Of a stretch of 64,000 nt of DNA, positions 1 to 64,000 are shown piece by piece. This DNA comes from an uncultured Gammaproteobacteria bacterium (GTDB lineage: Bacteria > Patescibacteriota > Microgenomatia > Levybacterales > GWA1-39-11): contig CAZEEU010000001.1 of assembly GCA_964511305.1 (NCBI GenBank), positions 127,214 to 191,213 on the forward strand. Direction: 5' to 3'. Both the position numbers and the translations under genes were made by a program. The notes beneath the pieces are model-generated. The model worked only from the letters and a program-made list of their open reading frames with translations. It searched no databases and was not told the DNA's origin. Each line of letters starts with the position of its first letter. Positions within the stretch are counted from its first letter, which is position 1.

Positions 1-83
1 CCACACAAAAAAAGTCGGATTTCTTTTATGCAGCAAAAAAGCTAGAAATATTATAAAAATGATGTCCTGAATTTTTGGCATAT

Positions 84-1259
84 TTATCTAAGAAAGATTT
101 TAAGAATATTTTTTTTGTCTTTTTCAGTAAGTTCTGGATTGTTGCCAATATACAATCCCCTCTCATGTGCAATCTGAGCGTTCTCCATTTTGAAATTCTT
201 TTCCGCCGTATACTTTTTAAAAAATGGCTGCGCAGTAATATCGCCACCAACAATCGGACGTATCTCAATTTTACCATCACATATGCTTACTAGCTCGTCT
301 CTTAATTTTTGGCTTTTACAAATTATCGGAATTGCAAAATTTGAAAGTAAATCCATATGGTCATAATAAATTGGCAGGTAATAATCTTTTTGTTGATATA
401 TCTTAAGAGCAACTTCAAGAAAGTTCTTGTTTCTTTTTTTTATAATTTCTTCAAGAAATGACAGCTGCACATTTCCAAGAAATCCATTTATTTCAGTGGG
501 TCGTAAGTTGTAACCGAGATCATAAAATGTGTATCTTGAATAAAATGTAGAATTAACCTTATATTTATTCCTCATTTTAGTCTGTTTGGCTACTGAAAGA
601 TTCCTATCCCATCCATGAGCCCTAACAATTCGCAACTGGTGAGCTAAATCTCCATTATCAGTACAAATTGCACCTCCTTCGATTGTTGACATATGATGTC
701 CTACATAAAAAGAGTTTGTGCTCGCAAAACCATAATTTCCTAATTTCATACCTTTATAAACACTCCCCAGCGACTCACAGTTGTCCTCAAGAAGAATTAT
801 TTTTTCTTTTCTGCAAAAGTCATAAATCTTGTCGATGTCATCGCAAAAGCCTAAAGTATTGGTTAAAAAGAGGGCCTTAAGTTTATGTTTTTTTGTAGCT
901 TCAATGAATTTTGCAGAGGAGACATTTAATGTATTAAGTTCTATGTCAATTGGTATAGGCGTTAGTCCAAGCTCAATTATTGGCATTACATTGGTTGACC
1001 AAGTAAGTGCTGAAAAGGCGACGTTATCTCCTTTTCTTAACTTACCAAGATTAAGTAATGCTTGTATAAGTGCTAAGTTTGCAGAACTTCCACTATTAAC
1101 AAATACACAATATTTCCTCTCTTGGAAGTGAGCAAACTTTTTTTCAAATTTTTCACATTCTGCGCCAAAGCTTAATTGCTTGGCGCTTCCTACAAAACTC
1201 TGCAATGCTTTGATAGTTGCCGGTTCTTTATAAAAAGTAGACTTGACGAGCTTTATCAT
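84..1259 (-). CDS. DegT/DnrJ/EryC1/StrS-family PLP/PMP-dependent sugar-modifying enzyme; probable sugar 3-dehydratase (ColD/E1-like) rather than aminotransferase
   Basis: 391-aa ORF with the DegT-fold signature (…FVNSGSSANLAL…, …ILLEDNCESLGS…). At the position of the Schiff-base Lys the sequence reads 'SFYVGHHMSTIEGG'. The paralog at 15984..17144 has 'SFHAIKNMSTGDGG' there, so Lys is replaced by His, as in the PMP-dependent 3-dehydratases ColD and E1. Confidence 0.8.
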   Translation of the reverse strand: MIKLVKSTFYKEPATIKALQSFVGSAKQLSFGAECEKFEKKFAHFQERKYCVFVNSGSSANLALIQALLNLGKLRKGDNVAFSALTWSTNVMPIIELGLTPIPIDIELNTLNVSSAKFIEATKKHKLKALFLTNTLGFCDDIDKIYDFCRKEKIILLEDNCESLGSVYKGMKLGNYGFASTNSFYVGHHMSTIEGGAICTDNGDLAHQLRIVRAHGWDRNLSVAKQTKMRNKYKVNSTFYSRYTFYDLGYNLRPTEINGFLGNVQLSFLEEIIKKRNKNFLEVALKIYQQKDYYLPIYYDHMDLLSNFAIPIICKSQKLRDELVSICDGKIEIRPIVGGDITAQPFFKKYTAEKNFKMENAQIAHERGLYIGNNPELTEKDKKNILKIFLR

Positions 1260-3139
1260 GATTTCCGAATACGAACGTATGGGACAGTAACATAAGCCAA
1301 AAAGATTATGATCGAAATAATACTTATAGGCAACAGCATTTTTATATATTTTTGCGGCTCGTAATACAGTTTTGCTTTAGAGGAATCTGTTGGCAAATCA
1401 AAACTGTTAATTCCTTGGTAGTTGCTTGATTTTATAGCTTTACCATTAATATCTAGGGTCCAATATGGAGAATACGATTCTGAGAATAATAAAGTGCCGT
1501 TTTTACTATCAGCAAAATTTAACTCGTATTCTGTAGCAGTTATATTTTCTGACTTGACTTGTGAAATGCTGTTCAGGATGCTGAATCTATTTCGATATCC
1601 TGTATTTTCAAAAACGGCGATCTTACCAAAATTTTTAACCTTTTTAAGATATTTAATTTTATCTATCTTTTCAATGACATTTAAATAATTCTTCTGTGAA
1701 TATTTATGGTCATCTATAAATATTTCACCCTCACTATCAAAAGGTACAATTACATATTTTATAGAGTATAAATCGAGCTTACCATTCAGATTGGGCAATT
1801 CTTTCAGAATAGTTACTGGATCATTTTTAGAGAATAATTCCCCTCGACCAATTGCAGGACTCACTGTTGAGAAGTACCCATATCGTTGCCACTGGGGAAT
1901 CCATAATGTCCTAAATGACTCTTTCTGATCAATAATGAAATCTGAAAGCTGTTTGTATTCTTTTGGCACCTCTCTCATGCGTGGTATATTTACCTGTCCA
2001 TAAAAAATAAATCGATTCAAAAATATCCAATACATTACAAACAAAACCATAAGAATTTTAAGGCTAATAAATTTCAATTGCTTTTTTGAATGAAAATAAG
2101 AACTTATACAATTGATGCCAGAAGGGATTAATAATGAATAGGCAAAGGCAATAAGCATATAAAACTTTGTAGAATCGCGAAACGCACCAAAACCAGGAAT
2201 ACTATCGTATAAAAATTCATATACTTTTCCGAATGGCTCATTTGTTCCCTTAGCCAAAAATATGCCCACCAACGAAATCAACGTCAATACTATTATCTGA
2301 TTTCTTTCTTTTAGCTTTGCTTTCAATCCAAGCAGTGGAACGAAAGCAAGTATTGGAAGTAATAAAAATTCTGACTTTACAAAAGATACTTTCCCAAAAA
2401 TATTATCAGGCCAATTAGGATGAAGTAGAGATATAGAATTTTCAAGGTGTGCAAAGCTAAAAAAGCTAGCAGATCCAGTAACACCACTGCCTACACTCTT
2501 TTGCGCAAATAAAATAAGTGGCACTATCCAAAATAGGTGACTTAAAAATATAACTCCTATTGCAGTCAGCATCAACATGATTGTATCTTTAACTACAATT
2601 TTTCTTAAAAATATAAAAACAAAGAATAGCAGAAAAAGGCCAACTGCAAAGATACGTGGGTCAAATAGAGTGAGAAGAGACGAAACAAGTCCAAAAGTAA
2701 TCGATCTTCTCAGCGAATATTTTTCAATCGCATTTATAAATGTCAAAACCATAAAAGGAAGCAATGAATATGCAAAAGCTACGCCAAGTTGTCCTCCAAA
2801 AAATATTAAGAGAAAATACGTATTCGTTGAGAAAATGAGTCCAGCAATAATTGCTAGGTAGTTGTTGATAGAAAATATTTTTTTAAATAAATAGAAACCC
2901 CCGAGAAAAGAACTAATAGAGATAGGCAAAATCCATAATAAAATACTAGCCCAAAGCCATCCCATTCCAAGTTGTGAAATTGTTGCAGTAAGATTTAGAT
3001 AGCTTGTAATCCATAGAGTATTTATAGACTGAATTCCCAATCCGCTATTTAAAGATGAATCCCATGAAGATGGAATGCCAACAAATGAGGCTAGGCTGTC
3101 TTGCCAAAAGAATCTCCAGTCTCCTCTTATAATATCCAT
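1256..3139 (-). CDS. Polytopic membrane protein (GT-C-like) with a YfhO-type C-terminal extracytoplasmic domain and C-terminal TM anchor
   Basis: 627-aa ORF with many hydrophobic helices in the N-terminal half. The C-terminus reads '…SYSPYWTLDINGKAIKSSNYQGINSF…' followed by a hydrophobic anchor (LLPISIISIIIFLAYV), the same module seen in the YfhO-like proteins of this window. Its start codon abuts an in-frame TAA that separates it from the 104-aa ORF upstream. Confidence 0.75.
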   Translation of the reverse strand: MDIIRGDWRFFWQDSLASFVGIPSSWDSSLNSGLGIQSINTLWITSYLNLTATISQLGMGWLWASILLWILPISISSFLGGFYLFKKIFSINNYLAIIAGLIFSTNTYFLLIFFGGQLGVAFAYSLLPFMVLTFINAIEKYSLRRSITFGLVSSLLTLFDPRIFAVGLFLLFFVFIFLRKIVVKDTIMLMLTAIGVIFLSHLFWIVPLILFAQKSVGSGVTGSASFFSFAHLENSISLLHPNWPDNIFGKVSFVKSEFLLLPILAFVPLLGLKAKLKERNQIIVLTLISLVGIFLAKGTNEPFGKVYEFLYDSIPGFGAFRDSTKFYMLIAFAYSLLIPSGINCISSYFHSKKQLKFISLKILMVLFVMYWIFLNRFIFYGQVNIPRMREVPKEYKQLSDFIIDQKESFRTLWIPQWQRYGYFSTVSPAIGRGELFSKNDPVTILKELPNLNGKLDLYSIKYVIVPFDSEGEIFIDDHKYSQKNYLNVIEKIDKIKYLKKVKNFGKIAVFENTGYRNRFSILNSISQVKSENITATEYELNFADSKNGTLLFSESYSPYWTLDINGKAIKSSNYQGINSFDLPTDSSKAKLYYEPQKYIKMLLPISIISIIIFLAYVTVPYVRIRKS

Positions 3140-3454
3140 TTATTTGCTTTTAACCTCACGAAGGCATAACACAATGTATAGCACTGTAAGAAAGTATCCT
3201 AATATACTAACTTGCTCTGCATAATAAGTTTTTGAGAATGCAACAAAAAAATAATTAAGACCAAATGATATCAACCCGAAGAGCAGTATTTTCTCAGAAG
3301 AAGGTCTAAATAGAACAAGTGCGCTAATAACAAAGGAGAATAGAACTACCCCATCAAAAAAAGTACTAACAATATTTATATACGGCAATCGAATAAGGAA
3401 AGAAACAATGACTGCAATTAGAATAGATACTATGAATTTAACAACTGTTTTCAT
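3140..3454 (-). CDS. Small 4-TM membrane protein, possibly a GtrA-like polyprenyl-phosphate-sugar flippase component
   Basis: 104 aa with four hydrophobic segments and an 'SFGLNYFF' segment that loosely resembles the GtrA 'SFxxNxxxTF' region. It overlaps the upstream 1111-aa gene by 4 bp (ATGA), and the small-protein-within-GT-C-operon arrangement fits. Family assignment is weak. Confidence 0.5.
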   Translation of the reverse strand: MKTVVKFIVSILIAVIVSFLIRLPYINIVSTFFDGVVLFSFVISALVLFRPSSEKILLFGLISFGLNYFFVAFSKTYYAEQVSILGYFLTVLYIVLCLREVKSK

Positions 3455-6400
3455 TTTGCTTTTTTCTGCCTAGATATAACAAGTATTACAAGTGATGCCA
3501 AAAAAGTAGTTACAGAAATAATGCACCCGTATAAAAATAGTTCTTGAATACGGTATTCAATAGTAAGTTTTGTCGTACCAGAGGGGATGACCCAACCATT
3601 TGCATAACCATTTACTTGTATGTGCTTTGTCCCAGGCTTTGTAGCCCAATTGTCATTATATGACTGACCCATTACAAATATACTTTTCTTATCTTGGTGC
3701 ATTGGACTCATTATGTACTGCGTGTTGCTTCTTTTTACTGGCATAACACTCATACTAGACACGTTATTTTTATTGCTGACGAAAATGATGTCAGGAATTG
3801 CAACTTTACTCATAACTAAATCACTAACTTCTACGTCTGACTTGCCGTAGCCCTCTAAGCTTTCCCTATTACAAATTACTAAATGAAATCCATTATTACC
3901 AGGTGAGGCATATGTTGTTTCATATGAATTAGACTTTAGTTGAGAGGTTAATACGTCAATACTCTGAGCACTCATTACCGACTTTCCCTTAGGAACAAAC
4001 GCAACAAAGAATTTATCATCTACCTCTTTTCGCAAATGATTAAAAGTAACTTTATATATATCGTTTCTTTCGGAAAGCACCGCCTGAGAATAATAACAAC
4101 CATCTTTCATGGCTTTTAGATCTAGGGCTTTATTACCTTCAATCAAATTCTTTTTTTGCTGCTTCAGAACAACTCTATTTTTTCCCTTTTCAAGATTGTG
4201 AGATCCCAAATCGTACCAGCCATTGTATTTGTTAACGACTAGCGTACTTTTACCATCTGCATTTATACCAAGATCTACAGATTCTCCAATTTCAATATTG
4301 TCATTGGGTCGATAATAAACTTGATAAGTATTTTTTTCTGGAGAATTTACCAAAAGTCTTTTCTCTTCCTCGGTGCTTGTTCTCCAGGTTCTTGTGTCAA
4401 TCAAGTTCCAATTTATTTGAAGTGCATTGGCAAGACCCAGAAGCTTTGGCTGATAATTAGGGTACTTCTCAATAATTTGCCTGATAATAACTTGTTGCGT
4501 CCTTATGTAGCTTAGAAGATCAATTAAATTGTCGTTAGTAAAACTGTGTTTTGAATTTATCAATGTAGACGTTAATTCTTCTGAGGTTCCTGTAGCCTCA
4601 TTTATAATTCTTAAAATTATTCTATCCTCCTCAGCACTATCAAGACTTTTTTGAATACCCATAATATCTCTGAGTGTTTTTTGTGAATAAAATATGGATA
4701 ATTCTACAGGCTTTTTCTTAAGTTGAGCTTCCTGCTTTAGCTGCTGATTCTGAATATAAAAATATAAAACAGATCCTTGTGTAATTGTTGGAATATATTG
4801 CAAAGTGTTAATAAATTTCCACTGCAAGTTACAAGTGATGCACATGCTGTCTAAGTAATAATTAGTCGGGGCTAGTCCAATATTTTTGTAAGGCAAATCG
4901 TCCTTAAAGAGAACCTCAGGCTGTGATGCATTGAAATTCGGTAGGGTTACTATTTTTCCAAATGTGTTTGTATCGCCCCCGATATAAGAATACGAATCGC
5001 TGTTTGTAAAATTCCCCTCACTTTGATAAAAATCATATACTTCCCATTTACCAAAAGTTTTAACTTCCCCCAAGTTCTTTGAGCTGAGAGCTGCTTTGAA
5101 CCGATCAGGACTAACCGATGGAGAATTTGGATTATCCCAGACAAAGTCATTTCTAAGAATAAAAGATTGAATGCCCAGTATTTTTGCTAAATTTTGCCAA
5201 CCTTCTTCATTTTTTTCCATCATGCCGTACAACTTCGACAATAAAGCGTCTTCGTCCTTGGACATATAGAGACTGTTATTTAAGATGGGTGAATCAGTTA
5301 ATAAAGTAGTTATAGGCGCAAGACTCCAATAACCCCAAGCGTATTGCTCTACCTTGCCATCCGCATTAGGTGGAGGAAGCATTAACGTTTTTTTATCGCC
5401 TCTTGTTGCACTACCACTCCATTTCCCAAAATCATATATGTACTGTGGCACTTCAACCCTATTTGACTGCTTTCCTTTTATATAGTCGAAAAATGAACCA
5501 TTTAAAAATGGGTAACTATAAAGAACTATTCCACAACAAAAAATTAAGTAAAAAAGATAAGCAGCTTTTGGTTTTTTATGTGCAATTTTTACTGCAACAA
5601 AATTAACAAAAAATCCTAATAAGACTGCGTAGGCAAGCCAGAGTGAAGGGGAGAATTTATAGAAAGGGTTACGAAAGGCAATGAATCCCGGGACGTACTT
5701 CATAAGCATTATGTATAAAGCCCCAAATGGTGGATGAGCACCAGCTACAAAAACAAGACTTACGACAGCAAGAAAAGCAAAAAATAATAGGATTTTACGC
5801 TCCGTTTTTTTCTTGTACAAAAGTAATGTTATGAATGCTGCTACTGGTATTAAAGAACTTATTAAAATCAGAAACGGATTATGCAAGAATACGTTTGCAT
5901 ACGGATGACTTGGATTTTGATACCACTCTGGCACTCCCTGAAGTCTAATTAAATTGCTATATGAACTATTTTCACTTACATATTTAACCCAATCTAAAAT
6001 TCCATCCTGGCCTCCAAAAAAGTCCACTGACTGACTGTAGGAAGTTTTTAAGGAACTTCCAAATGGAATTAACCAATACGAATGCAGCAACACGCTAAAT
6101 AAAAGAACAGTTCCAAAAAGCTTTGACAACATTAAAAGTCTTTTTCCTGATGCCTCTTGAATAAAGTAATATATGACAAACACAAGCAAGGAGATAATAA
6201 CTCCTCCAAAAAGAGGAAGACTGGCAAGTCCGTTCAGAAGAAAAAATATTAACGCTATAAGAATGCCAGTTGTCAGTGTTTTTCTTTTTCCTTCATTCCA
6301 ATCCAAAAGTAGTGCAATCATGAGGGGAAGCGCTGCGTACACTGAAAATTTAGTTCTCTCAGCAACAAACCATCCCTGCAATAAAAAGTGATTTATCATG

Positions 6401-6786
6401 TAGAAAATTGCAACAGGAAGGCTGAAGAATTTTAGCTTTAGCTTGTCCTCTATCTTTGTTGCCAGGTAGTACATCGACAGACCAGGCAGCACGAACCAGA
6501 AAATAAAAGTGATTTTCTGCATAGATTGCAAGCCAAATCCAGCATATGTGACCACTGCTTCAAGTCCGTGAATGAATATTCCGGGAAGTGCGTACGTCTG
6601 ATCATTACCAAACCCGAATCTGACTGTCCATGTATAGAGTCTGTCCAGAAAATGCGGGATAGGAGCCAATGGAAGGCCAGCATCATGCCCTAAAATAACC
6701 TGTGATTGCCCAAACCAAAGCAATGGGATCAAACCCAAAAGAAGAATTATGAGTATCTCTATTCTACGTTGACTGATAAATTTCAT
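3451..6786 (-). CDS. Very large membrane protein: N-terminal ~550-aa multi-TM (GT-C-like) domain, ~500-aa extracytoplasmic domain, C-terminal TM anchor
   Basis: 1111-aa uninterrupted ORF. The N-terminus begins with 'GHDAGLPLAPIPHFLDRL…' and is followed by more than 10 hydrophobic helices. The central and C-terminal region is hydrophilic and β-rich, and the protein ends with a hydrophobic anchor '…GCIISVTTFLASLVILVISRQKKAK'. Confidence 0.8.
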   Translation of the reverse strand: MKFISQRRIEILIILLLGLIPLLWFGQSQVILGHDAGLPLAPIPHFLDRLYTWTVRFGFGNDQTYALPGIFIHGLEAVVTYAGFGLQSMQKITFIFWFVLPGLSMYYLATKIEDKLKLKFFSLPVAIFYMINHFLLQGWFVAERTKFSVYAALPLMIALLLDWNEGKRKTLTTGILIALIFFLLNGLASLPLFGGVIISLLVFVIYYFIQEASGKRLLMLSKLFGTVLLFSVLLHSYWLIPFGSSLKTSYSQSVDFFGGQDGILDWVKYVSENSSYSNLIRLQGVPEWYQNPSHPYANVFLHNPFLILISSLIPVAAFITLLLYKKKTERKILLFFAFLAVVSLVFVAGAHPPFGALYIMLMKYVPGFIAFRNPFYKFSPSLWLAYAVLLGFFVNFVAVKIAHKKPKAAYLFYLIFCCGIVLYSYPFLNGSFFDYIKGKQSNRVEVPQYIYDFGKWSGSATRGDKKTLMLPPPNADGKVEQYAWGYWSLAPITTLLTDSPILNNSLYMSKDEDALLSKLYGMMEKNEEGWQNLAKILGIQSFILRNDFVWDNPNSPSVSPDRFKAALSSKNLGEVKTFGKWEVYDFYQSEGNFTNSDSYSYIGGDTNTFGKIVTLPNFNASQPEVLFKDDLPYKNIGLAPTNYYLDSMCITCNLQWKFINTLQYIPTITQGSVLYFYIQNQQLKQEAQLKKKPVELSIFYSQKTLRDIMGIQKSLDSAEEDRIILRIINEATGTSEELTSTLINSKHSFTNDNLIDLLSYIRTQQVIIRQIIEKYPNYQPKLLGLANALQINWNLIDTRTWRTSTEEEKRLLVNSPEKNTYQVYYRPNDNIEIGESVDLGINADGKSTLVVNKYNGWYDLGSHNLEKGKNRVVLKQQKKNLIEGNKALDLKAMKDGCYYSQAVLSERNDIYKVTFNHLRKEVDDKFFVAFVPKGKSVMSAQSIDVLTSQLKSNSYETTYASPGNNGFHLVICNRESLEGYGKSDVEVSDLVMSKVAIPDIIFVSNKNNVSSMSVMPVKRSNTQYIMSPMHQDKKSIFVMGQSYNDNWATKPGTKHIQVNGYANGWVIPSGTTKLTIEYRIQELFLYGCIISVTTFLASLVILVISRQKKAK

Positions 6787-7457
6787 TTGGTACCAATAAA
6801 ATAAATTGGACTGTTAAGGTATGGGAGAGGAATTGCAAAAGGTATTATGACCTGAAACCTCTTGTTGTATCTGTAAAAAAATGGAATGAGTGTGAATCTG
6901 TGATATTGCACATTCTTAAACCCGACCTTCTTCATGATAGCTACCCATGCTTGAGGATATTTAACATTGATATGTGTAGGGTCACGAAAGTTCCATTTAT
7001 AAGGATAGGGTGTTGAGATAACTGCCTTACCTTTAGCTTCCAATGCTTCATAAATATTTTGAATTCCTTTTTCTGGATTTTCTAAATGCTCCACTACCTC
7101 AAAAGCAATAATGTAATCAAATTTAACAGGTAACGTTATCTTTTTCTGGATATCGATGACACTAAATTTTACATTTGGAGTAAGCTTTTTGGCTTTCTTA
7201 ACCGCGTATTCAGATATATCACTTGCGTAGACATCAAATCCCTTTTCGACCAACAAACTTGAGACCGCACCGATAGAGCACCCTATCTCTAAAATCTTTT
7301 TGCCATTTCCCTTTTTTAGAGGAATATATTCTCCAAGCTTTTCAATCCAAGCAAAGAACCAACGTCGAGATAATTCCAAATCTTCCTTACTAAAATTTCC
7401 AACTGCACTCTTGTACCAACCTTTAAAGTACGTCTCCTCAAATTTATTTTTCGGCAT
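6783..7457 (-). CDS. Class I SAM-dependent methyltransferase
   Basis: 224 aa with motif I 'KILEIGCSIGAVSS', an acidic motif II '…DVYASDIS…' and motif III '…DYIIAFEVVEHL…'. It overlaps the upstream gene by 4 bp. Confidence 0.85.
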   Translation of the reverse strand: MPKNKFEETYFKGWYKSAVGNFSKEDLELSRRWFFAWIEKLGEYIPLKKGNGKKILEIGCSIGAVSSLLVEKGFDVYASDISEYAVKKAKKLTPNVKFSVIDIQKKITLPVKFDYIIAFEVVEHLENPEKGIQNIYEALEAKGKAVISTPYPYKWNFRDPTHINVKYPQAWVAIMKKVGFKNVQYHRFTLIPFFYRYNKRFQVIIPFAIPLPYLNSPIYFIGTK

Positions 7458-53534: not shown

Positions 53535-53535
53535 A

Positions 53536-55214: not shown

Positions 55215-56864
55215 ATGAAAAAAATTAAACCCTACCTGGCAATTATCCTCCTATCCCTTCCTCCATTAATTTACATTTTTCTGAATCCAAATTTACCACA
55301 TACCAGTGATGGACTCATGCATGTGGCAAGGTCTGCTGCGTATCTCAACGAGATCCAGGCTGGTCAGTTCCCCATAAGATGGGCGCATCAATTTGATTAT
55401 GGCTATGGCACTCCAATCTTTAACTTTTTCAATCCTTTGCCATATGCTTTTGGGGCTCTTCTGCTCTCTATCGGAATAAATCTTGCAACAACTCTTAAAA
55501 TAGGTTTTGTTGTAACACAGCTTCTTTCCGGAATTTTTATCCTTCTTTTTGCAAGAACATTTTTTAAAAATTCCAAGACGGCGTTTTTAGTTGCTGTCAT
55601 GTATCAATATGTACCTTTTAGACTCGTTGAGATGCATACACGTGGCGACATAGGATGCTTATACTCGTACATGACTTTTCCATTACTAATGTATGCAATA
55701 ACGGTTTTTTTGAAAAAAAATACAATACCCGGATTTTTACTCTTAGGTCTAGCGTCGGCTTTACTACCTTTAGGGCACAATATTAATGGGTTTGTTTTCT
55801 TCTGTCTCGGCTCTTTATACGTACTATTTGCTACAAAAGACGTCAAAAAAATTCTTGTAACTTTTTTGGCAATGGGATTTGGATTACTTTCTATTTCGTA
55901 TTTCTTGCTCCCAGCCCTTACAGAGCTTAAGTACCTCAATGGCTACATATTCAGTAAGCACCTGTTCTATATGCATTTTCCGGCAATTTACAAATTGCTA
56001 CTTCCGAATATCACAAATAACCCCTCTTTAAGAGTTGCTGAAGTATCTGTTCAGGTTGGATTATTTAATGTAGCTTCCCTCATTGGCTTTATATACCTTT
56101 TTGCTAAAAAAAGAATCGCAAAGGAAAATTGGAAAATGAGCTCCTATCTTCTTGTTGTAGGACTTCTCACTTTTCTTATAATGCTCCCAATAACAAAACC
56201 TCTCTGGGAACATATTGAGTACCTCAGGCAATTTCAATTTCCTTGGCGCTTTCTAGGAATACTGATTTTTGTAACTCCAATGGCCGGCGGAATAGTATTT
56301 GAAAAATTAGATTTTATAAAAAAGTCCAATATAAAATATTACGTACTTTTGGCTCTTATTATACTAAGCACTGTTTTTTATTGGGGCCCATATCAAGGCT
56401 TTCAGAAGATTGACGAGAACTACTATAGGAATTTTCCGGGATCGACAAACTACTTTGCTGAGGTAAATACGATATGGATGGAAAAGGAACCACAAGAGTA
56501 TCCCAAAAAACGTGTTGAAATTGCAGCAGGGAATGCACAAATTTCAAATATAACTATATTACCAGAACGACATACATATACTGTTTTGTCAAAAGAGGAA
56601 AGTACAGTTATCGACAAGACGTACTTTTATCCAGGGTGGAAAGCGTACGTGAATGGGATCGATACTCCAATAGAGTTTCAGGATGCAAACTATAGAGGGC
56701 AGATCACTTTCAAAGTTCCAACAGGCAACAACAATGTAGTTGTTGCTTTTGAACAAAACAAAATAATGAAGACCGGAAATATAATAACACTAACTTCTAT
56801 TGCCTCTGTTATATTAATGCTAGGATATTACTTCATCAAAAAATATGGCAAAAGGAAAAAATGA
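55215..56864 (+). CDS. Polytopic membrane protein, uncharacterised GT-C-like 'family X'
   Basis: 549 aa: 'HTSDGLMHVARSAAYLNEIQAGQFPIRWAHQFDYGYGTPIFNFFNPLPYAFG…YQYVPFRLVEMHTRGDIGCLYSY' and the C-terminal 'TYFYPGWKAYVNGIDTPIEFQDANYRGQITFKVPTGNNNVVVAF' with a terminal TM. Confidence 0.8.
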   Translation: MKKIKPYLAIILLSLPPLIYIFLNPNLPHTSDGLMHVARSAAYLNEIQAGQFPIRWAHQFDYGYGTPIFNFFNPLPYAFGALLLSIGINLATTLKIGFVVTQLLSGIFILLFARTFFKNSKTAFLVAVMYQYVPFRLVEMHTRGDIGCLYSYMTFPLLMYAITVFLKKNTIPGFLLLGLASALLPLGHNINGFVFFCLGSLYVLFATKDVKKILVTFLAMGFGLLSISYFLLPALTELKYLNGYIFSKHLFYMHFPAIYKLLLPNITNNPSLRVAEVSVQVGLFNVASLIGFIYLFAKKRIAKENWKMSSYLLVVGLLTFLIMLPITKPLWEHIEYLRQFQFPWRFLGILIFVTPMAGGIVFEKLDFIKKSNIKYYVLLALIILSTVFYWGPYQGFQKIDENYYRNFPGSTNYFAEVNTIWMEKEPQEYPKKRVEIAAGNAQISNITILPERHTYTVLSKEESTVIDKTYFYPGWKAYVNGIDTPIEFQDANYRGQITFKVPTGNNNVVVAFEQNKIMKTGNIITLTSIASVILMLGYYFIKKYGKRKK

Positions 56865-59181
56865 TCTCTTGATTCGTTTTGCAAAAACAAAAAACAATCT
56901 CTTTCTTGTCATTGCAGTTATTCTAACGGTATTATTTTTTTATCCCGTATTTTTGAAAGGATATACTCCATTTCCTGGCGACCTACTTCTTGCAGAATAT
57001 CAACCATGGAGGTCATATTCGTATGGTGGGATGAATCCAGGGGCGGTACCAAATAAAGCTCAGTACTTTGACTCAATACGCCAAATTTATCCATGGAAGA
57101 CGGAGGTTATTAGTCAAATAAAAAATGGTTCTTTTCCATTATGGAATCCTTATAATTTTAGTGGCGCCCCATTATTTGCAAATTTCCAATCTGCCGTCTT
57201 ATATCCATTAAATGTAGTTTATTTCTTTCTTCCGCAACACGCAGGCTGGAGCTTGCTAGTAATGATACAACCTCTCTTTTCCTTCCTAATGCTTTTTCTC
57301 TTCGCAAGAAAAATGGACATATCAAAAATAGGAAGTGTATTTGCTTCCATTGGATATGCATTCTCACTCTACATGACAACTTTTCTTGAGTACAATACCA
57401 TTGGTCACTTCCTCTACTTATTACCATTAAGCCTATTGCTCTTTGAATATTGCCTAGATGGAAAAAAATTGGCACTGCCTGCTCTTTCATTTATAATCGC
57501 CTCTACTCTTTTCGCAGGACACCTTCAACTTTTTGGAGGAAATCTTATGTTCTTAATTTTGTATATGGCTATAAGATTCGCACATACCCGAAAGAGCAAA
57601 ACCTTAAATTTGAAGATTCTATTTTTTGTAATTCTTGGGATTGGAATAGGGTGCATTCAACTCATACCAGGCATCGAGTTAATTTCTAACTCCGCAAGAA
57701 ACGCTCACAGTACTGAATTCTTTTACGATAATCTACTAATTCGGCCTGATCAGATTATTCTCTATTTAACTCCGGATATTTTTGGCAATCCAGCCGTTAA
57801 GAATTATCTTTTGCCCTTCTCCTACCCTTCAAAAGCCCTTTACGTCGGGATTACTACGATCGTACTATTTGCATTTGGTTTACTCTCAAAAAAAGGTCCG
57901 CTTCTCACAGCTGTCTCTATTTGCTCTCTTATTTTTGCCCTTTTAGTGTTCTTAAATCCGGTTTCTTTTCTTCTTTACAAACTTAATCTTCCAATCATTT
58001 CATCAAGCAGTCCGTCAAATTATATTTACCTTGTATCGATTGGTATTTGCTTAATTGCTGGCAGTGGATACGATTCTTTCGTTAAAGCAAATCTAAAAAA
58101 AGTAATTATTATTCTTTGTATTTTCCTTACATTTGTTGTTGGAATATATACTGCAACTACTTTTTTTCATATACCCATAATTAAAAATGGACTTATTCTA
58201 TCAATTGGAATATTTTTAGCCTCATCTTTCGCCTTTTTACTGATAAGAATTATCAAACTTCAAAAAATTGGAATCACGTTATCATTGCTAATACTTACTT
58301 TAGATTTATTCTATTTCTTTCATAAATTTAATTCATTCGTACCCTCTTCGTATATATATCCTTCAACTGCTATTAATACATGGATCAAAAAAAATGCACA
58401 ACTTGATAGATACTGGGGATTTAAGAGCGGACATATAGAGCCAAATTTTCAAACGCAAACTCAAACCTATTCGCTTGAAGGATATGATCCTCTTTTCCCA
58501 AAAACATATCATGACTTTGTAGCCCTTGCATCGAAAGAATCATCACGATCCGATGCTCTTTTAGATCACGATCTAACTGACACTAATTTAAAAATTCTAT
58601 CAACTACAAGCACTCGATATGTTATTGATAAATTCGAAAACGCATCGACTCAGGATACATTTCCTAGTAAGTATTTTCAGAAAGTATTAAGTCTAAACGA
58701 TTTTTCTGTTCAAGAAAACCTTAAATCAGCACCACGACTATTTCTTACAAAATCTTATTCGATTTATTCTAATCTTAAGGAATTTAAAAAAGAATTTGAA
58801 AAAAAATCGTTTGAGCCTGCTCATAGTATATTGTTAGAAAAAAATCCGTCACTTTCCAAAATTCAACTATCTGATTCAAAATTAGACATACGAACTTATT
58901 CTCCTTCTTATATAAAAGCAAATTCGATAACCAATACAGATTCTTTACTGTATTTGTCAGATACCTACTACCCTGGGTGGAACGCATATATTGATAATGT
59001 AAAAACCGAAATATATAAAGCCAATTACACTTTTCGTGCAGTAAAAGTCCCGGAAGGCACACACACAATAGACTTCAAATATGAGCCTAAATCATTTCAA
59101 TATGGATTGTGGATTTCTATTATTAGTATAATAACAGCAACAAGTTACGCCTTAAAATCACTATATGTTAAAAAAAAGTAA
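56845..59181 (+). CDS. YfhO-family polytopic membrane glycosyltransferase-like protein
   Basis: 778 aa: '…GSFPLWNPYNFSGAPLFANFQSAVLYPLNVVYFFLP…' and the C-terminal 'DTYYPGWNAYIDNVKTEIYKANYTFRAVKVPEGTHTIDFKYEPKSF' with a terminal TM. Confidence 0.8.
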   Translation: MAKGKNDLLIRFAKTKNNLFLVIAVILTVLFFYPVFLKGYTPFPGDLLLAEYQPWRSYSYGGMNPGAVPNKAQYFDSIRQIYPWKTEVISQIKNGSFPLWNPYNFSGAPLFANFQSAVLYPLNVVYFFLPQHAGWSLLVMIQPLFSFLMLFLFARKMDISKIGSVFASIGYAFSLYMTTFLEYNTIGHFLYLLPLSLLLFEYCLDGKKLALPALSFIIASTLFAGHLQLFGGNLMFLILYMAIRFAHTRKSKTLNLKILFFVILGIGIGCIQLIPGIELISNSARNAHSTEFFYDNLLIRPDQIILYLTPDIFGNPAVKNYLLPFSYPSKALYVGITTIVLFAFGLLSKKGPLLTAVSICSLIFALLVFLNPVSFLLYKLNLPIISSSSPSNYIYLVSIGICLIAGSGYDSFVKANLKKVIIILCIFLTFVVGIYTATTFFHIPIIKNGLILSIGIFLASSFAFLLIRIIKLQKIGITLSLLILTLDLFYFFHKFNSFVPSSYIYPSTAINTWIKKNAQLDRYWGFKSGHIEPNFQTQTQTYSLEGYDPLFPKTYHDFVALASKESSRSDALLDHDLTDTNLKILSTTSTRYVIDKFENASTQDTFPSKYFQKVLSLNDFSVQENLKSAPRLFLTKSYSIYSNLKEFKKEFEKKSFEPAHSILLEKNPSLSKIQLSDSKLDIRTYSPSYIKANSITNTDSLLYLSDTYYPGWNAYIDNVKTEIYKANYTFRAVKVPEGTHTIDFKYEPKSFQYGLWISIISIITATSYALKSLYVKKK

Positions 59182-60874
59182 AATTATAATACTTGCTGTC
59201 ATTTTTCTCCTTGCCTTTGCATTACGATTTCACAAATTAGATTCAATCCCAAATGGATACAGAGAAGATGAAACATCCATTGGATACAATGCCTATTCCG
59301 TACTTAAAACCGGCATGGATGAGCATGGAAATAAATATCCACAAAATTTCAAGGCATTCGGGGAATATAAACTCCCTGGATACGTGTATGCAACAGTTCC
59401 TTCTGTTGCAATATTTGGCCTAAATCCTTTTGGCGTAAGATTTATCTCTGCAATTTCTGGATTTCTTATTGTCATTGTTTCTTTCTTTCTTTCAAAAGAA
59501 ATACTTAAAAATCAAAAACATTTATCAGAATGGGGGCCTATCGCCATTTCACTTCTTTTGGCAGTTAACCCTTGGCTTATTTTCTTTTCAAGATCAGCAT
59601 TTGAAGTAACGCTTGCAAATCTTTTTATTATTTCAGGGATATTACTTTTTTTGAAAGGAAAAGAAAGTCAGAAGATGGTCTACTTCATGGTTTCTGCAAT
59701 TCTACTAGCCTTTTCTATATACACATACAATATAGCTCGCCTTTTTACACCAATCCTTTTATTATCTTTAATCCTGATTTATTGGAAAAAAGGCAACTCT
59801 ATTAATGCAAGGACCGCAATTTACTCCTTGGGTACTTTTGCAATAATATTAATTCCTTTTATTTATGGTGCTATTGCAAAAGGTGGAGCTGACTCAACTC
59901 TTGGTACCCTTATTTTTAGTAGTGCGAAAATTCAGGCACCATTACAGGAATTTAGAAGTTATTTTACTGAGATAAGTCCGCTTATGTCAAAGTTATTATT
60001 TAACTACTACTTTATGACATTTTGGCTGTATATCAATAATGTAGTCTCGCATTTTTCTGTTAGTTATTATTTTGTGAATGGAGATGTTTTAGGCAGTTCT
60101 ACTTCCGGGAATGTTGGCCAGTGGTATATTTTTGAACTTCCACTTATAGTCTTGGGAGGAATATTATTCTTCAAATCCAAAACAAAAGAGTCATTGCTAA
60201 TACTTTTATGGGTTGTTGAGCTTATTTTAGTAAGTAGCATTACAAGGGATCCACCTCAGGGCACCCGGACATTCTTTTTGTTATTTCCGATATCTCTACT
60301 TTCATCTATAGGACTAGTTGCAGCAATCGGTTACTTTTCAAAGCTTAAGCAACAAAAAACTAAATACGCAATAAGCCTTTTTGCCAGCGCTATCTGTCTT
60401 TACTATGTAATCTATTTTTTGGCATCGTACTTTGTAAGATTTCCTATTTTTTATGCAAAATATTGGAATACGGCAGATCGTGAGGTTGGGAAATTTATTA
60501 AAGAAAATGGCAGCAAATATAAGACGGTTGTTATTGATCGGGATTCAAGTATAAACTACTCTATAATACTTGCAGAGCTTTTGTATCCTCCTGAAAAATT
60601 TATTAAAGAAGCTGTATGGTCACCTGATGACTCAGAAGGTTTTTCATATCCAACTAAATTTTCAAATATTGAAATTCGTCCAATCGACTGGGAAAAGGAT
60701 ATCAATATGAAAAATCAGCTACTTATCACCTCCCCTGACGGAAAAAAAGCTGACACGGGAATACTTAAAACGATAACTTATCCAAAGCGTCCGGTGGTCT
60801 TTAATAAAGGTCAAGAAATTATGCGCTACCCAATCGAAGAACCTGCTTACTTAATAATTGAAACTAATCGTTAG
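59165..60874 (+). CDS. GT-C glycosyltransferase, GT39/ArnT-PMT-like (subfamily A)
   Basis: 569 aa: '…YREDETSIGYNAYSVLKTGMDEHGNKYPQNFKAFGEYKLPGYVYATVPSV…'. It overlaps the upstream YfhO-like gene by 17 bp. Confidence 0.85.
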   Translation: MLKKSKIIILAVIFLLAFALRFHKLDSIPNGYREDETSIGYNAYSVLKTGMDEHGNKYPQNFKAFGEYKLPGYVYATVPSVAIFGLNPFGVRFISAISGFLIVIVSFFLSKEILKNQKHLSEWGPIAISLLLAVNPWLIFFSRSAFEVTLANLFIISGILLFLKGKESQKMVYFMVSAILLAFSIYTYNIARLFTPILLLSLILIYWKKGNSINARTAIYSLGTFAIILIPFIYGAIAKGGADSTLGTLIFSSAKIQAPLQEFRSYFTEISPLMSKLLFNYYFMTFWLYINNVVSHFSVSYYFVNGDVLGSSTSGNVGQWYIFELPLIVLGGILFFKSKTKESLLILLWVVELILVSSITRDPPQGTRTFFLLFPISLLSSIGLVAAIGYFSKLKQQKTKYAISLFASAICLYYVIYFLASYFVRFPIFYAKYWNTADREVGKFIKENGSKYKTVVIDRDSSINYSIILAELLYPPEKFIKEAVWSPDDSEGFSYPTKFSNIEIRPIDWEKDINMKNQLLITSPDGKKADTGILKTITYPKRPVVFNKGQEIMRYPIEEPAYLIIETNR

Positions 60875-62507
60875 GTCTGAATGCTACAAAAAGCACATCT
60901 CCCTTAAGATCTTTTAATTCTTTAACAATTTTAGCTTTTCTTGGAACCTCTTTTACTGATGCTATAAAAAGAGTGTCCTTTGTCAAAAGCGCATCATCTG
61001 GAATTTTATTGAGAAAGTAAACATTATCCACTCTTCGTACTCTAATCCAATTATCATTTTCTTTTATAATTTGTTGCGTTCCCGGTCTTTGATATTTATA
61101 AGGATCATATTTTGAATAGAACAGATAGTACGCATACTGCTTGGTATCATTGATTCTGCTTGAAATAATAATTTTGTCATAATTATTTTTCTGAGTATCA
61201 ATATACTTCATTGTTGCTTCATATCCAGACATCTCAAATCGTGAGTAGAAAACTTTAAAATAAGAAAAATAGGTTATACCAAAAAACATAACTTCATATA
61301 TTATCAAGATTAATGGGAATGCTAGAATAAATTTCTTTCTTCTGATCTTATCTACTAAATACACTAAGCCGTATGCGCCTGCGATTTGTGCTGAAGGAAG
61401 AAGTAATAAATATCTTGAATAATGTCCTCCCCCAGTTATGCTATCTGGAATTGGAGACAGAAAAATCCACAACAAAATGAGGACTCCGCCTTTATTTTTC
61501 TTAATAATAAGAATTGCTACTCCAATAATAAAGATTAAATATTCAAATATGTAAAAAAGTCCTCTTTGTGGGAGCGTTGAATACTGTGTTGAAGTTCCAT
61601 TTATGGCAAGTAATTCTGGAGAAAAATGACTAACATAATTTGTCGAAAACTTAGTTGCAAAAACGGAATATTTATTTATGGATATTTTACAAATTATTGA
61701 AGGCAAAACTTTTTGACATTCCCCTCTTTGTTCATTTATTACAGTAATTGTACCGCTGTCCTTTGTTAAATTTACTTGAGAAGATCTTGTTCCTGCTGTC
61801 TTAAGTCCACCAAATATAATTGCAGGCAGCAGTGCAATCACAAAAACGATCAGCGTAATAATTATTTTTCTTTTGGAAACTGTATCTCTGTAGGCAAAAA
61901 TGCAGGCTATTATAAGTAGGGGAGCAAATAATGTGTATGCTGCATATGTATAAATCGATAACGCAAAAAATACCATTGATATATACAAAAATCTTGAAGA
62001 TTTAGTTCCAGTAACAAAAAGGGTGACTGCCAAAAGGGATATGAATACACCAACAATTGACTCAATACCAATCCTACTCATCCCAATATGCCAGGGGTTA
62101 ACCGCAAGCAAAAACATTGAAGCTATGCTTATCCATGATTTTTTCCACAAAATGTAAGATAGAATTCCAGCAAGAAGTATGGTTAAGGATCCGATAGCTG
62201 CTGCAGGATACCGCACTGCATAAGCGGTGAAATCGAAAGCAGCAATGCTTGGTATAACAAGATATGTATACAGAGATGGTCTGTAGTCGCCAAAACCTCT
62301 AAGATATGGGGAAGGCTGCATTTGCCCCCATTGATCTCGTCCGGTAATTAAAATTGAATATGCATCATACCCAGTATCTACTTCGTCATTAGAAAGACCT
62401 GATGGAGTTATTCCTAGATCGTAAAACCTAAAGAATATTCCGATAAAGAAAATTATTACAATCAGTAGAATCTGATACTTTGTAAAAATCCTACTTACTC
62501 TTTGCAT
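60864..62507 (-). CDS. GT-C glycosyltransferase, GT39/ArnT-PMT-like (subfamily A)
   Basis: 547 aa: '…GLSNDEVDTGYDAYSILITGRDQWGQMQPSPYLRGFGDYRPSLYTYLVIPSI…'. Convergent with 59165..60874, with an 11-bp overlap. Confidence 0.85.
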   Translation of the reverse strand: MQRVSRIFTKYQILLIVIIFFIGIFFRFYDLGITPSGLSNDEVDTGYDAYSILITGRDQWGQMQPSPYLRGFGDYRPSLYTYLVIPSIAAFDFTAYAVRYPAAAIGSLTILLAGILSYILWKKSWISIASMFLLAVNPWHIGMSRIGIESIVGVFISLLAVTLFVTGTKSSRFLYISMVFFALSIYTYAAYTLFAPLLIIACIFAYRDTVSKRKIIITLIVFVIALLPAIIFGGLKTAGTRSSQVNLTKDSGTITVINEQRGECQKVLPSIICKISINKYSVFATKFSTNYVSHFSPELLAINGTSTQYSTLPQRGLFYIFEYLIFIIGVAILIIKKNKGGVLILLWIFLSPIPDSITGGGHYSRYLLLLPSAQIAGAYGLVYLVDKIRRKKFILAFPLILIIYEVMFFGITYFSYFKVFYSRFEMSGYEATMKYIDTQKNNYDKIIISSRINDTKQYAYYLFYSKYDPYKYQRPGTQQIIKENDNWIRVRRVDNVYFLNKIPDDALLTKDTLFIASVKEVPRKAKIVKELKDLKGDVLFVAFRPND

Positions 62508-64000
62508 CTGGGGTTTTTACTTTATATATAGTAAGCGTAGTATTTCCTATTCCCTTTTTATAACTGGCAATTTTTTCGATAGGCCATGTGGTTGGTGCAA
62601 CGCCTGGTAAAGCGCAATGCAAACAGTCTTGGTAAAAGACTACATAGACAGGCTTTATCTCAGCTTCTTTGGCAATTTCTTCAGGGATAGTTTCGTTGAT
62701 TGGCCAATAGCCTTTAAGGGTTATATTGCTGTTGTTAAGAAAATATGTCTCATATGCATGTGGCAATAAGCCGAATGTACCTTGGGTTGCTACATAAATC
62801 GGACCTTTTTTAGACTCATTATTGAAAAATTCGACGCTCTCACCTATTCCACCCCCAGCAGGCCAACCATTTATAAATTGCTCAAGATCAAGTCTTGGAA
62901 TTGGAGCATTAGCAAAATCAAAAATAACATAGTACATCATACGCAGTGGCAATATAGCGATGATTACAATAAAAGCAGCTCTTAACGCTATGTTTTTATA
63001 ACGAACAAATAATTCATATATGCTATACGCTACCAATGGAATTAATGGCAGGGTCATAAATAATATGTATCGTGGATATAGGGTTTTGCCGAGCACACAC
63101 AGTCCTAAGAATGGAATTACAAACCAAGCAACAAGTAGTATTTTTTCTTTCAAAAAGCGTTTTGAAATGAAAAATGAGACAACGGCTAAAAGAACGTATG
63201 GAGGCGTAAAGTAGATCATGAACCAATCCCAGAGACCCATAAAGTTACGCTGAAAATTTGATACCTTATCCATTGGCTGCAGTTTCAACCACTCCCCAAT
63301 CGGATGAACAAAGATTGTATTTTTTTCTGCAATGATATGAAAGAATGGTGAAAGTCGTTGTACTGAATACATTCCATAAGCAATCACTGCACTAACAATT
63401 ACAAGAACCATAAATTTTATCAATTTTTGTTTTCTTACTTTGTCAGAAAAATTAAAAAGTAACAGAAGAACTGGTGTTAGATATAGTGATAAAAATCCAG
63501 ACGATTTAGTAAGAACTGACCCACCAAGTATAAAACCCAAAATCATCGCAAGGTCCAATCTCAACCTTCTTACAAGCAATATTTGAAAATAAAGAGACCA
63601 CACAAAAAATGCAGCAGTCATGCTTTCATAAATTGCTAATCTGTCATATACCAATAGAAAGGGAAATAGAACGGTAAGGGCAACTGCAATTAAAGAGATT
63701 ACTCGCATACTATTCTTCTCCTTTGATGCAAATATTTCTCTCGTTAAGAAATAGATGCCAACACAAACTAAAAATCCAGCAAATACAGAAACTAGTCTCC
63801 CCGCAAGCAATGGGTCATCAATAAGCTTCATCATAATGCTATCCGCCCAGATAAAAGATGGATTTTTTCCGTCGGTAAGTGAAATAAATCTCCAGTTGGA
63901 GTCAGATTTGGCAATTTGTGCCCATCTCGTGTATATGGCCTCATCCGTAAAAATCGGAAGGGAGGTTATGTTAAGAAGTCTGGTTGCAACAAAAACCACT
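62491..64000 (-). CDS. GT-C glycosyltransferase, ArnT/PMT-like; 5' end probably truncated by the window edge
   Basis: '…LPIFTDEAIYTRWAQIAKSDSNWRFISLTDGKNPSFIWADS…' followed by multi-TM. The DE motif lies only about 18 residues from the first Met at 63999, whereas paralogs have a TM helix before it, so the N-terminus likely extends past 64000. Confidence 0.7.
   Translation of the reverse strand, partial: VVFVATRLLNITSLPIFTDEAIYTRWAQIAKSDSNWRFISLTDGKNPSFIWADSIMMKLIDDPLLAGRLVSVFAGFLVCVGIYFLTREIFASKEKNSMRVISLIAVALTVLFPFLLVYDRLAIYESMTAAFFVWSLYFQILLVRRLRLDLAMILGFILGGSVLTKSSGFLSLYLTPVLLLLFNFSDKVRKQKLIKFMVLVIVSAVIAYGMYSVQRLSPFFHIIAEKNTIFVHPIGEWLKLQPMDKVSNFQRNFMGLWDWFMIYFTPPYVLLAVVSFFISKRFLKEKILLVAWFVIPFLGLCVLGKTLYPRYILFMTLPLIPLVAYSIYELFVRYKNIALRAAFIVIIAILPLRMMYYVIFDFANAPIPRLDLEQFINGWPAGGGIGESVEFFNNESKKGPIYVATQGTFGLLPHAYETYFLNNSNITLKGYWPINETIPEEIAKEAEIKPVYVVFYQDCLHCALPGVAPTTWPIEKIASYKKGIGNTTLTIYKVKTPDAKSK

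Follow-up and report, generated by a model that had tools for sequence, protein, structure and literature searches.

In mycobacteria and corynebacteria, lipomannan, lipoarabinomannan (LAM) and arabinogalactan are built outside the cell by a relay of many glycosyltransferases (GTs) of the GT-C type, each adding one sugar from a polyprenyl-phosphate donor (decaprenyl-phosphate-mannose or -arabinofuranose). The enzymes of the relay include PimE (GT87), MptA, MptB and MptC, AftA to AftD, EmbA to EmbC and Pmt. Here we describe a locus with 24 GT-C-type polytopic proteins among 45 genes. It occupies the whole of a 64,000-nt stretch of contig CAZEEU010000001.1 (the window; all positions are given within it), from a bacterium of the Levybacteria type (Patescibacteria, or candidate phyla radiation, CPR). 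NCBI taxonomy places Levybacteria within the Microgenomates group of Patescibacteria. The locus probably encodes a multi-component extracytoplasmic glycosylation system comprising polyprenyl-phosphate-sugar synthases, flippases and many GT-Cs.

In a second group of described systems a GT2 enzyme makes a C55-phosphate-linked sugar, a flippase moves it, and a GT-C enzyme transfers the sugar outside (PMC8035078, PMC11127046). Those compared here are CsbB-GtcA-YfhO, GtlA/B, CsdAB/CD/EF, GacIJKL, GtrABC and the GT136 three-component system (PMC8035078, PMC11127046). MOP/Wzx-type flippases have been proposed for some multi-component systems (PMC8035078), and a MATE flippase is also described (PMC11127046). 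The GT-A/GT-C pairs tabulated for Gram-positive systems number from one to three per organism (PMC8035078). A literature search on Levybacteria, Patescibacteria or CPR together with GT-C found no such locus described, only general remarks on multiple dolichyl-phosphate-mannose-type transferases in Peribacteria and Saccharibacteria.

Open reading frames (ORFs) of at least 150 aa were counted as large genes. There are 45 of these (g01–g45), tiling the window almost without gaps at a coding density of 98%, and the GC content is uniform along its length (0.32–0.38). Hydropathy scanning (Kyte–Doolittle) assigns 8–12 transmembrane (TM) segments to each of 26 of the 45 products. The GT-C genes cover 42,867 of the 64,000 bp (67%) and their products fall into at least eight sequence families. 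Ten are of the PMT_2 type; six of these form a tight family of ∼545 aa (family A: g20, g23, g24, g40, g43 and g44) and four are looser (g18, g21, g22 and g45). Three are YfhO proteins (g29, g32 and g42), four are PTPS_related proteins (g33, g38, g39 and g41), two are the convergent paralogues g09 and g10, and five are singletons (g02, g03 of 1111 aa, g05, g25 and g26). They are accompanied by nine GT2 and three GT4 enzymes, two Polysacc_synt/MOP flippases (g15 and g36) and seven sugar-tailoring enzymes, i.e. two DegT aminotransferases, two short-chain dehydrogenase/reductase (SDR) epimerases/dehydratases (one a GalE equivalog), one GNAT acetyltransferase and two methyltransferases. An earlier sequence-only reading had proposed these same counts, with the PTPS_related proteins as a ‘family X’, and Pfam and all-against-all phmmer searches reproduced them exactly. 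It had also taken the whole window as one functional theme; the inventory bears this out, but the window is not the full extent of the island, which runs past both ends.

The island resembles the mycobacterial relay in its MptA_B-family flanking gene, the GT87-like g26, the AftD-like g02 and g03, the PMT_2-type proteins and the candidate GT2 polyprenyl-phosphate-sugar synthases. The giant g03 has an AftD-like layout, its large extracytoplasmic domain being followed by a TM anchor at the C-terminus. The host, however, is a CPR bacterium and not an actinobacterium, and no Emb-type (Arabinose_trans) domain and no DprE or phosphoribosyl-pyrophosphate pathway genes were seen. The GT-Cs are concentrated in a single locus at 67% density, whereas the mycobacterial genes are scattered over a 4-Mb genome. 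YfhO and PTPS_related proteins dominate, and g09/g10 and g25 belong to families lacking any model.

With systems of the CsbB-GtcA-YfhO and GtrABC type the island would share an architecture of GT2 synthase candidate, candidate lipid-sugar flippase and GT-C (of PMT_2 or YfhO type). One donor/flippase pair can serve several GT-Cs in those systems. Unlike the tabulated Gram-positive systems, the island has 24 to 27 GT-Cs and only ∼3–4 candidate donor synthases. A further difference is that Pfam scans detected no flippase of the GtrA family, and the window yielded no genes for a teichoic-acid or rhamnan backbone.

All 24 polytopic proteins are tied to a GT-C family or fold, by Pfam, paralogy, profile–profile comparison, scans of homologues or structure. 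Every one has 8–12 TM segments, in line with a GT-C polytopic core of ∼7–13 TM helices. Hidden Markov model searches, a check that the sequence-only reading had suggested, place 14 of the 24 directly in Pfam GT-C families, 12 above the cutoff and two (g23 and g43, with PMT_2) just below it; the other 10 were joined by further comparison, and none is transporter-like. The matches above cutoff are to PMT_2 (g18, g21, g24, g40 and g45), YfhO (three), PTPS_related (three) and GT-C_AftD (g02). The remaining 10 had no Pfam match at E ≤ 0.01, and six further proteins are connected to GT-C families by paralogy or by hhalign scores of at least 90%. In what follows genes g08, g09 and g41–g43 lie on the forward strand and all other large genes on the reverse strand.

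Within family A, g24 (31258–32883) matches PMT_2 at 2.3e-13 (51 bits) and g40 (53536–55170) at 7.7e-13. g23 (29585–31261) scores 25.8 bits against a cutoff of 26.1 and is related to g40 at a phmmer E-value of 3.5e-102; g43 (59165–60874) scores 22.8 bits, below cutoff, and is related to g40 at 5e-62. g20 (25171–26814; 5.9e-76 to g23), which carries the invariant DE motif, and g44 (60864–62507; 2.2e-67 to g24) are close paralogues of Pfam-positive genes, as is g39 below. Among the looser four, PMT_2 is matched by g18 (22838–24454; 5.2e-8, 33.7 bits), by the 424-aa g21 (26815–28089; 3.4e-7, 31 bits) and by g45 (62491–64000; 7.7e-9), which is cut by the end of the window and has 520 aa in full-length contigs. 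The product of g18 is called as 512 aa in other assemblies, and its true start is probably internal. The divergent g22 (28070–29584) is linked to g18 at 4.4e-11, and weakly to the NCBIfam Agl23 family (26 bits, below cutoff). In support of g22, the in-house profiles of families A and E align with an hhalign score of 99%, those of E and PTPS_related with 98.6%, and that of A with the MptA_B-like family with 91.5%.

The three YfhO proteins are g29 (37743–40007; 754 aa; 2.5e-25, 89.5 bits), g32 (42154–44472; 772 aa; 1.3e-21) and g42 (56845–59181; 778 aa; 9.2e-18), and the YfhO and PTPS_related profiles are related at 99.4%. PTPS_related is matched by g33 (44488–46176; 1.2e-12, with YfhO at 3.1e-7), g38 (50178–51872; 1.5e-11) and g41 (55215–56864; 3.9e-10). 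The fourth member, g39 (51879–53534), has no direct Pfam match and is joined to g33 (phmmer 3e-63) and g38 (3.3e-60).

The large protein g03 (3451–6786) comprises an N-terminal GT-C module (approximately residues 1–430), an extracytoplasmic domain of ∼650 aa and a C-terminal TM anchor, an AftD-like architecture. It has no direct GT-C_AftD match, and its top matches among PDB sequences are to AftD but weak (E 0.29). An orthologue of 1132 aa in GCA_964403585.1, in conserved synteny, gives a weak GT-C_AftD match. The AftD/PTPS_related-like g02 (1256–3139; 627 aa) also has a C-terminal TM anchor and scores 27.2 bits with GT-C_AftD (cutoff 26), but is without the large soluble domain. The PTPS_related profile is related to g02 at 97.3% and to g03 at 90%, and g02 and g03 are related to each other at 95%. 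The PMT_2-like g05 (7519–9585; 688 aa) is fast-evolving and has only 16 homologues, of which four match PMT_2; its profile aligns with that of family A (94.3%, E 1e-7). For g26 (34852–36090; 412 aa), a GT87/PIG-M-like protein by its homologue profile, 835 homologues are present in a library of 50% representatives. Pfam GT87 is matched by 22 of 41 sampled and PMT_2, PIG-U, Alg6_Alg8 or ALG3 by some others, and the profile matches the solved structure of GPI mannosyltransferase I in the PDB (E 4e-6).

Single-sequence searches with relaxed Pfam (E ≤ 10) and NCBIfam gave nothing usable for g03, g05, g09, g10, g25 and g26, and neither single-sequence nor profile searches of PDB sequences gave anything significant for g09, g25 or g05. 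Sequence comparison by itself leaves g09, g10 and g25 outside GT-C. g09 (12318–13808; 496 aa) and its convergent paralogue g10 (13805–15274; 489 aa) are related at a phmmer E-value of 3.1e-107 with 36% identity in the family alignment. Their family has 394 homologues at E ≤ 0.001, and none of the 120 matches listed carries a Pfam domain. The family of g25 (32861–34849; 662 aa) has 150 homologues at the same threshold and no usable Pfam model, DUF6541 being matched by two of the 120 listed. AlphaFold models of g09 and g25, built from alignments of 42 and 41 sequences respectively, are confident (predicted local distance difference test 88.2 and 90.4; predicted template modelling score 0.88 and 0.89). 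Both are helical bundles with a C-terminal α/β domain, resembling in g09 the C-terminal globular domain of AglB and in g25 likewise similar to that of an oligosaccharyltransferase (OST). GT-C glycosyltransferases were the only matches in structure comparison, in agreement with the sequence-only reading, which had suggested this check. The island therefore contains at least two widespread GT-C families (g09/g10 and g25) for which Pfam and NCBIfam have no family model.

An acidic residue directly after TM1 is kept in every GT-C family. In the family alignments this is DE in 43 of 43 sequences of family A, D or E in 18–19 of 20 of family E, D79 in 19 of 19 YfhO proteins and D44 in 44 of 44 PTPS_related proteins. 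The g05 family has a GDEW motif in which D30 and E31 are nearly invariant; D30 is invariant in 42 members of the g09 family, and in the g26 family D97 is invariant. In the g25 family the invariant residue (D138) is placed in the first large loop. The catalytic or donor-binding carboxylate of GT-C enzymes occupies this position, and its retention in every family argues that the paralogues are active enzymes. From the positive-inside N-termini, the acidic loop is predicted to face outward.

The paralogues are old, individually maintained genes, judging by sequence comparison with related genomes. A search of GTDB species genomes with g40 found 19 related loci (50–78% identity; Levybacteria/Patescibacteria), which were re-annotated against the window proteins. 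They share a syntenic core in the order GT2, MptA_B-like gene, g45, g42 (YfhO), one to three family-A genes, g39, g38, g37 (GT2), g36 (flippase), g35, g34, variable genes and g32 (YfhO). Synteny of the module g01–g09, including the 1132-aa orthologue of g03, extends to a relative that has a contig of 1.57 Mb, and a sister species has the same families on one contig of 211 kb. The paralogues are mutually only 28–37% identical, which together with the conserved core and module points to ancient genes that are individually conserved, and rules out recent tandem amplification. Copy number and some members of the island vary between related genomes. One homologue of g09 is labelled Roizmanbacteria. 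Several of the related loci are third-party MAG (metagenome-assembled genome) records titled ‘uncultured Gammaproteobacteria bacterium’ (within L016–L034); they have ∼35% GC and are syntenic with, and 51–78% identical to, the Levybacteria/Patescibacteria loci, so these titles look like placeholder or wrong labels.

The contig is real. At least 10 independent assemblies (ENA, JGI and Logan) tile the window (1–16786, 11837–32820, 29977–51062 and 50864–64000) at 98.8–100% identity and with the same gene order, which disposes of the chimeric assembly that had been named as a possible objection. Exact copies of window proteins occur on many independent contigs, including two of 314 kb (ENA ERZ27275549 k141_165247) and 163 kb, and in the ENA contig NODE_29 the distance between g30 and g03 is 33.2 kb, identical to that in the window. 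One JGI contig (3300045384 Ga0490027_000014; L009 11810–12658) is 100% identical to window positions 13163–24971 and departs from it inside g09 at 13163, where a 162-aa remnant of g09 is followed by a gene for an FtsH-like AAA protease. Either this strain lacks the island's left third or the contig is misassembled.

In total the island spans at least 77 kb, with a minimum of 27 GT-C genes. On the right (contigs L013–L015) the full g45, encoding a 520-aa PMT_2 protein, is followed by an MptA_B-family GT-C and a DPM1-like GT2, and unrelated genes (Maf, PCC and peptidase M28) begin ∼3.3 kb past position 64000. Leftward it extends beyond position 1 by more than 6 kb, and the retrieved flank ends ∼6.5 kb out, still within it. 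Its genes encode a weak GT2, a GT4 fragment, a 513-aa protein with 10 TM segments and no family match, a GT4, a hexapeptide acyltransferase, a GT2 and a polytopic protein of 1061 aa. This last starts ∼5.7 kb left of position 1 (L001 22505–23336), is cut by the end of the locus and has a weak Wzy_C match (E 0.016), which hints at a polymerase or ligase step within the same island. The sequence-only reading had expected a small genome in which the island would take a large share. The host is indeed a Levybacteria-type CPR bacterium, but from the relative's 1.57-Mb contig the island would amount to ∼5% of the genome, and is not dominant.

The gene content suggests the following route. The tailoring enzymes (GalE, the second SDR, two DegT proteins, a WecD-like acetyltransferase and two methyltransferases) would produce nucleotide sugars of unusual kinds, probably hexoses in amino, N-acetylated, deoxy or methylated form. 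At the membrane's inner face, polyprenyl phosphate would be charged with single sugars by short GT2 enzymes (g27, g37, the GT2 of the right flank and perhaps g14). The remaining GT2 and GT4 enzymes may assemble a primer linked to lipid, or an anchor of glycolipid. Transport of the lipid-linked sugars to the outer face would fall to the two MOP/Wzx flippases and perhaps also to a 104-aa protein for which four TM helices are predicted. There the 24 GT-Cs (at least 27 in the island, of at least eight families) would each attach one sugar, by a specific linkage, to a surface glycoconjugate that is either still growing or already finished. What this route says of the donor type, the pathway's direction, the order of its steps, the activity of each paralogue and the nature of the acceptor is inferred. 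As acceptor we favour a lipoglycan or a heteropolysaccharide associated with the wall, possibly along with surface proteins.

The candidate synthases g27 (36087–36815) and g37 (49484–50197) and the right-flank GT2 align over their full length with the NCBIfam models AglJ (116.7 bits for g27), ArnC, PgfS and PpgS and with that of the dolichyl-phosphate-hexose transferase. g37 is syntenic in the related loci and adjoins the flippase g36 (48010–49539; Polysacc_synt_3 8.1e-49; NCBIfam MOP flippase 132 bits, below cutoff), so that a synthase candidate and a flippase lie side by side in the conserved core. The short GT2 g14 (18280–19056; Pfam GT2 4.4e-22) is weakly similar to polyprenyl-phosphate glycosyltransferases, with PgfS, AglJ, ArnC and PpgS all below cutoff. 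The second flippase is g15 (19118–20404; Polysacc_synt 1.1e-9, Polysacc_synt_3 2.7e-9). Both flippases belong to the MOP/Wzx family, as the description of them as Wzx-like implied, but they may flip polyprenyl-phosphate-monosaccharides instead of repeat units. The 104-aa protein (3140–3454, reverse strand) is translationally coupled between g03 and g02 and is called as a gene in all independent assemblies. Its size and topology allow the speculation that it is a small GtrA/SMR-type lipid-sugar flippase. A small ORF of 135 aa, which may or may not be a homologue, also follows the g03 orthologue in a distant relative (L035 459–866). Pfam searches of the window proteins found no initiating phosphoglycosyltransferase (Bac_transf or MraY/WecA-type), Wzz/PCP, Wzy_C or LCP ligase domain, which favours single-sugar lipid-phosphate donors over a classical repeat-unit pathway.

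Several observations weigh against this scheme. Every match of a GT2 to a donor synthase model is below the curated NCBIfam cutoff. A GtrA/SMR-family flippase was not detected in Pfam scans of the window proteins and the 104-aa protein, and the latter has no Pfam family match at all. AlphaFold models cover only two of the 24 GT-Cs. Finally, the weak Wzy_C protein lies just to the left of the window, and a Wzx/Wzy route may co-exist in the island.

The possible alternative that survives best, though we think it unlikely, is that the island serves mainly protein glycosylation, its PMT_2-type and OST-like GT-Cs O- or N-glycosylating S-layer proteins, pili or other secreted proteins and not building a polysaccharide or lipoglycan. 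Counting g05 there are 11 PMT_2-type proteins, and the superfamily includes bacterial protein O-mannosyltransferases; one MOP flippase is weakly similar to an O-glycosylation flippase model, and the predicted folds of g09 and g25 are OST-like. The label ArnT/PMT-like, used in the sequence-only reading, holds at the level of the PMT_2 superfamily but no further. Neither the PMT domain (PF02366) of the protein O-mannosyltransferases (GT39) nor a MIR domain is present in any window protein. Membership of ArnT (GT83) is rejected, with g40 scoring 13.1 bits against a cutoff of 567 for the equivalog model NF009784 and the other tested proteins giving no match; the window has two DegT aminotransferases, g12 with an ArnB match below cutoff, but no recognised ArnA- or ArnD-type gene. 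A regular-expression scan found the WWDXG-type OST motif in none of the 45 proteins. In contrast to STT3, AglB and PglB (GT66), g09 and g25 lack this motif, match no OST sequence in the PDB and have a much smaller C-terminal domain. With no STT3 match in Pfam either, membership of GT66 is rejected. There is no candidate acceptor protein gene in the window, and MptA_B, GT87, AftD-like and YfhO proteins are familiar from pathways that make glycolipids and polymers.

A rapidly diversifying, Gtr-like set of seroconversion enzymes, which would vary surface glycan epitopes for phage evasion or host-cell specificity with no single fixed pathway, is somewhat less likely still. It draws on the variable parts of the island. 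One to three copies of family A occupy the same position among relatives, genes like g33, g31 and g25 swap in and out, and a JGI contig diverges inside g09; g05, with its few homologues, is 46% identical in the sister species compared with 67–78% for neighbouring genes. Set against this, the core (the MptA_B-like gene, g45, g42, g40, g39, g38, g37, g36, g35 and g34) is one-to-one and in the same order across 19 genomes down to ∼50% identity, conserved homologues of g09 and of g25 number in the hundreds, and the identity between paralogues is that of ancient and not of recent duplications.

A conventional Wzx/Wzy capsule or O-antigen-like locus is improbable. Here GT2 and GT4 enzymes would build a repeat unit on undecaprenyl diphosphate for Wzx to flip, some polytopic proteins would be polymerases or ligases, and side branches would be the work of only a few GT-Cs. 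In favour of such a locus are the presence of two MOP/Wzx flippases and 12 GT2/GT4 enzymes, the weak Wzy_C match beyond the left edge and the nucleotide-sugar tailoring genes typical of O-antigen loci. Yet the gene calls of the ∼7-kb left and 8.5-kb right flanks, like the window, include no initiating phosphoglycosyltransferase, Wzz/PCP or export component. None of the 24 polytopic proteins matches Wzy_C or O-antigen polymerase models, and the g09 and g25 models match GT-C glycosyltransferases only. A ratio of 24 GT-Cs to 12 cytoplasmic GTs is moreover the inverse of that in a normal Wzy locus, and a classical Wzx/Wzy pathway does not account for the 24 GT-Cs. That the polytopic proteins are transporters or otherwise not glycosyltransferases, or the contig a chimera, can be dismissed: 10 of the 24 lack a Pfam match at E ≤ 0.01 and PDB sequence searches were unproductive for g09, g25 and g05, but all 10 were later tied to GT-C, no transporter family or fold was matched, and both the independent assemblies and the 211-kb contig of the sister species reproduce the arrangement.

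The components of the proposed extracytoplasmic glycosylation system are all of known kinds, so that nothing in it is categorically new. What is new is their density, with 67% of 64 kb taken up and no fewer than 27 GT-C genes gathered at a single locus in a lineage whose relatives have genomes of roughly 1–1.6 Mb, the conservation across a candidate phylum, and the two or more widespread GT-C families without a model. CPR/Patescibacteria make up a large share of bacterial diversity; they are mostly uncultured and their envelopes are little known. That two thirds of 64 kb in a conserved island code for GT-Cs indicates that reduced genomes invest heavily in extracytoplasmic glycan chemistry; the host's lifestyle is reduced and probably symbiotic. 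The g09/g10 and g25 families and the g03 giant are targets for new CAZy GT families. The genes of the island could serve to predict the surface glycans, host attachment and phage receptors of Levybacteria, and the GT-C relay of the mycobacterial cell wall, a drug target, offers itself for comparison. More tentatively, Levybacteria, and probably other Microgenomates, might assemble a complex major envelope glycoconjugate almost wholly on the outer face of the membrane by a relay of ∼27 GT-Cs, which would parallel the mycobacterial LAM/arabinogalactan pathway independently and at higher density. The g09/g10 and g25 families, with their OST-like C-terminal domains, could then found new CAZy GT families, possibly of novel oligosaccharyl- or glycan-transferases, and hosts and phages might meet the cell chiefly through this glycan.

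The remaining large genes of the window encode tailoring enzymes and cytoplasmic GTs. Among the tailoring enzymes, g01 (84–1259; DegT_DnrJ_EryC1 2.4e-58) is a DegT/RfbH-like pyridoxal-phosphate-dependent sugar aminotransferase or dehydratase (NCBIfam RfbH-like, 226 bits), and g12 (15984–17144; Pfam 5e-126) is a PseC/ArnB-like DegT sugar aminotransferase (PseC 385 bits, cutoff 423; ArnB 347 bits, cutoff 631). g11 (15283–15984; Acetyltransf_10) is a WecD-like GNAT N-acetyltransferase (dTDP-4-amino-4,6-dideoxygalactose acyltransferase, 101 bits). All the NCBIfam scores of these three are below cutoff. g08 (11359–12318; Epimerase 1.4e-38) is a NAD-dependent SDR sugar epimerase/dehydratase, and g17 (21837–22820) is the UDP-glucose 4-epimerase GalE (TIGR01179, 386.7 bits, cutoff 262.3). 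Two S-adenosylmethionine-dependent methyltransferases, g04 (6783–7457) and g07 (10592–11311), match Methyltransf_23 at 3.7e-21 and 4.4e-15 respectively. The GT4 enzymes are g13 (17174–18298), g16 (20355–21419) and g30 (39977–41062), with Glycos_transf_1 at 7.6e-32, 2.7e-24 and 1.1e-18. The other GT2 enzymes are g06 (9582–10595; Glycos_transf_2 8e-26), g19 (24373–25146; 8.6e-24), g28 (36812–37810; 1.3e-21), g31 (41405–42157; 1.6e-15), g34 (46145–47062; 5.1e-12) and g35 (47062–47961; 1.2e-22); the last two belong to the conserved core and have orthologues in most of the 19 related loci.

Between GalE (g17) and the GT4 g16 lies a gene for a 121-aa four-helix-bundle protein of the 23S rRNA IVP/bAvd-like type (21453–21818, reverse strand; 23S_rRNA_IVP 1.1e-35; bAvd 28.5 bits, below cutoff), whose position is kept in all independent assemblies. 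It is probably a passenger in the island. A link to a diversity-generating retroelement is unsupported and probably does not exist, since Pfam found no reverse transcriptase among the window ORFs of 150 aa or more (no search for template and variable repeats was made).

Scans for tRNA, tmRNA and Rfam matches found none in the window. The second-largest gap between its large ORFs (342 bp, 41063–41404) contains an ORF of 81 aa with two predicted TM helices (41163–41408, forward strand). It lies on the opposite strand to the surrounding genes and is not called in public assemblies, and a promoter and terminator scan of the gap was at background level. Strand switches in the window are few and tight. 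The convergent genes g09 and g10 overlap by 4 bp (13805–13808) and g43 and g44 by 11 bp (60864–60874), while the divergent pairs g07/g08 (11311–11359) and g40/g41 (55170–55215) are separated by only 44–47 bp. Same-strand neighbours mostly overlap by 1–80 bp, which suggests long, translationally coupled operons.

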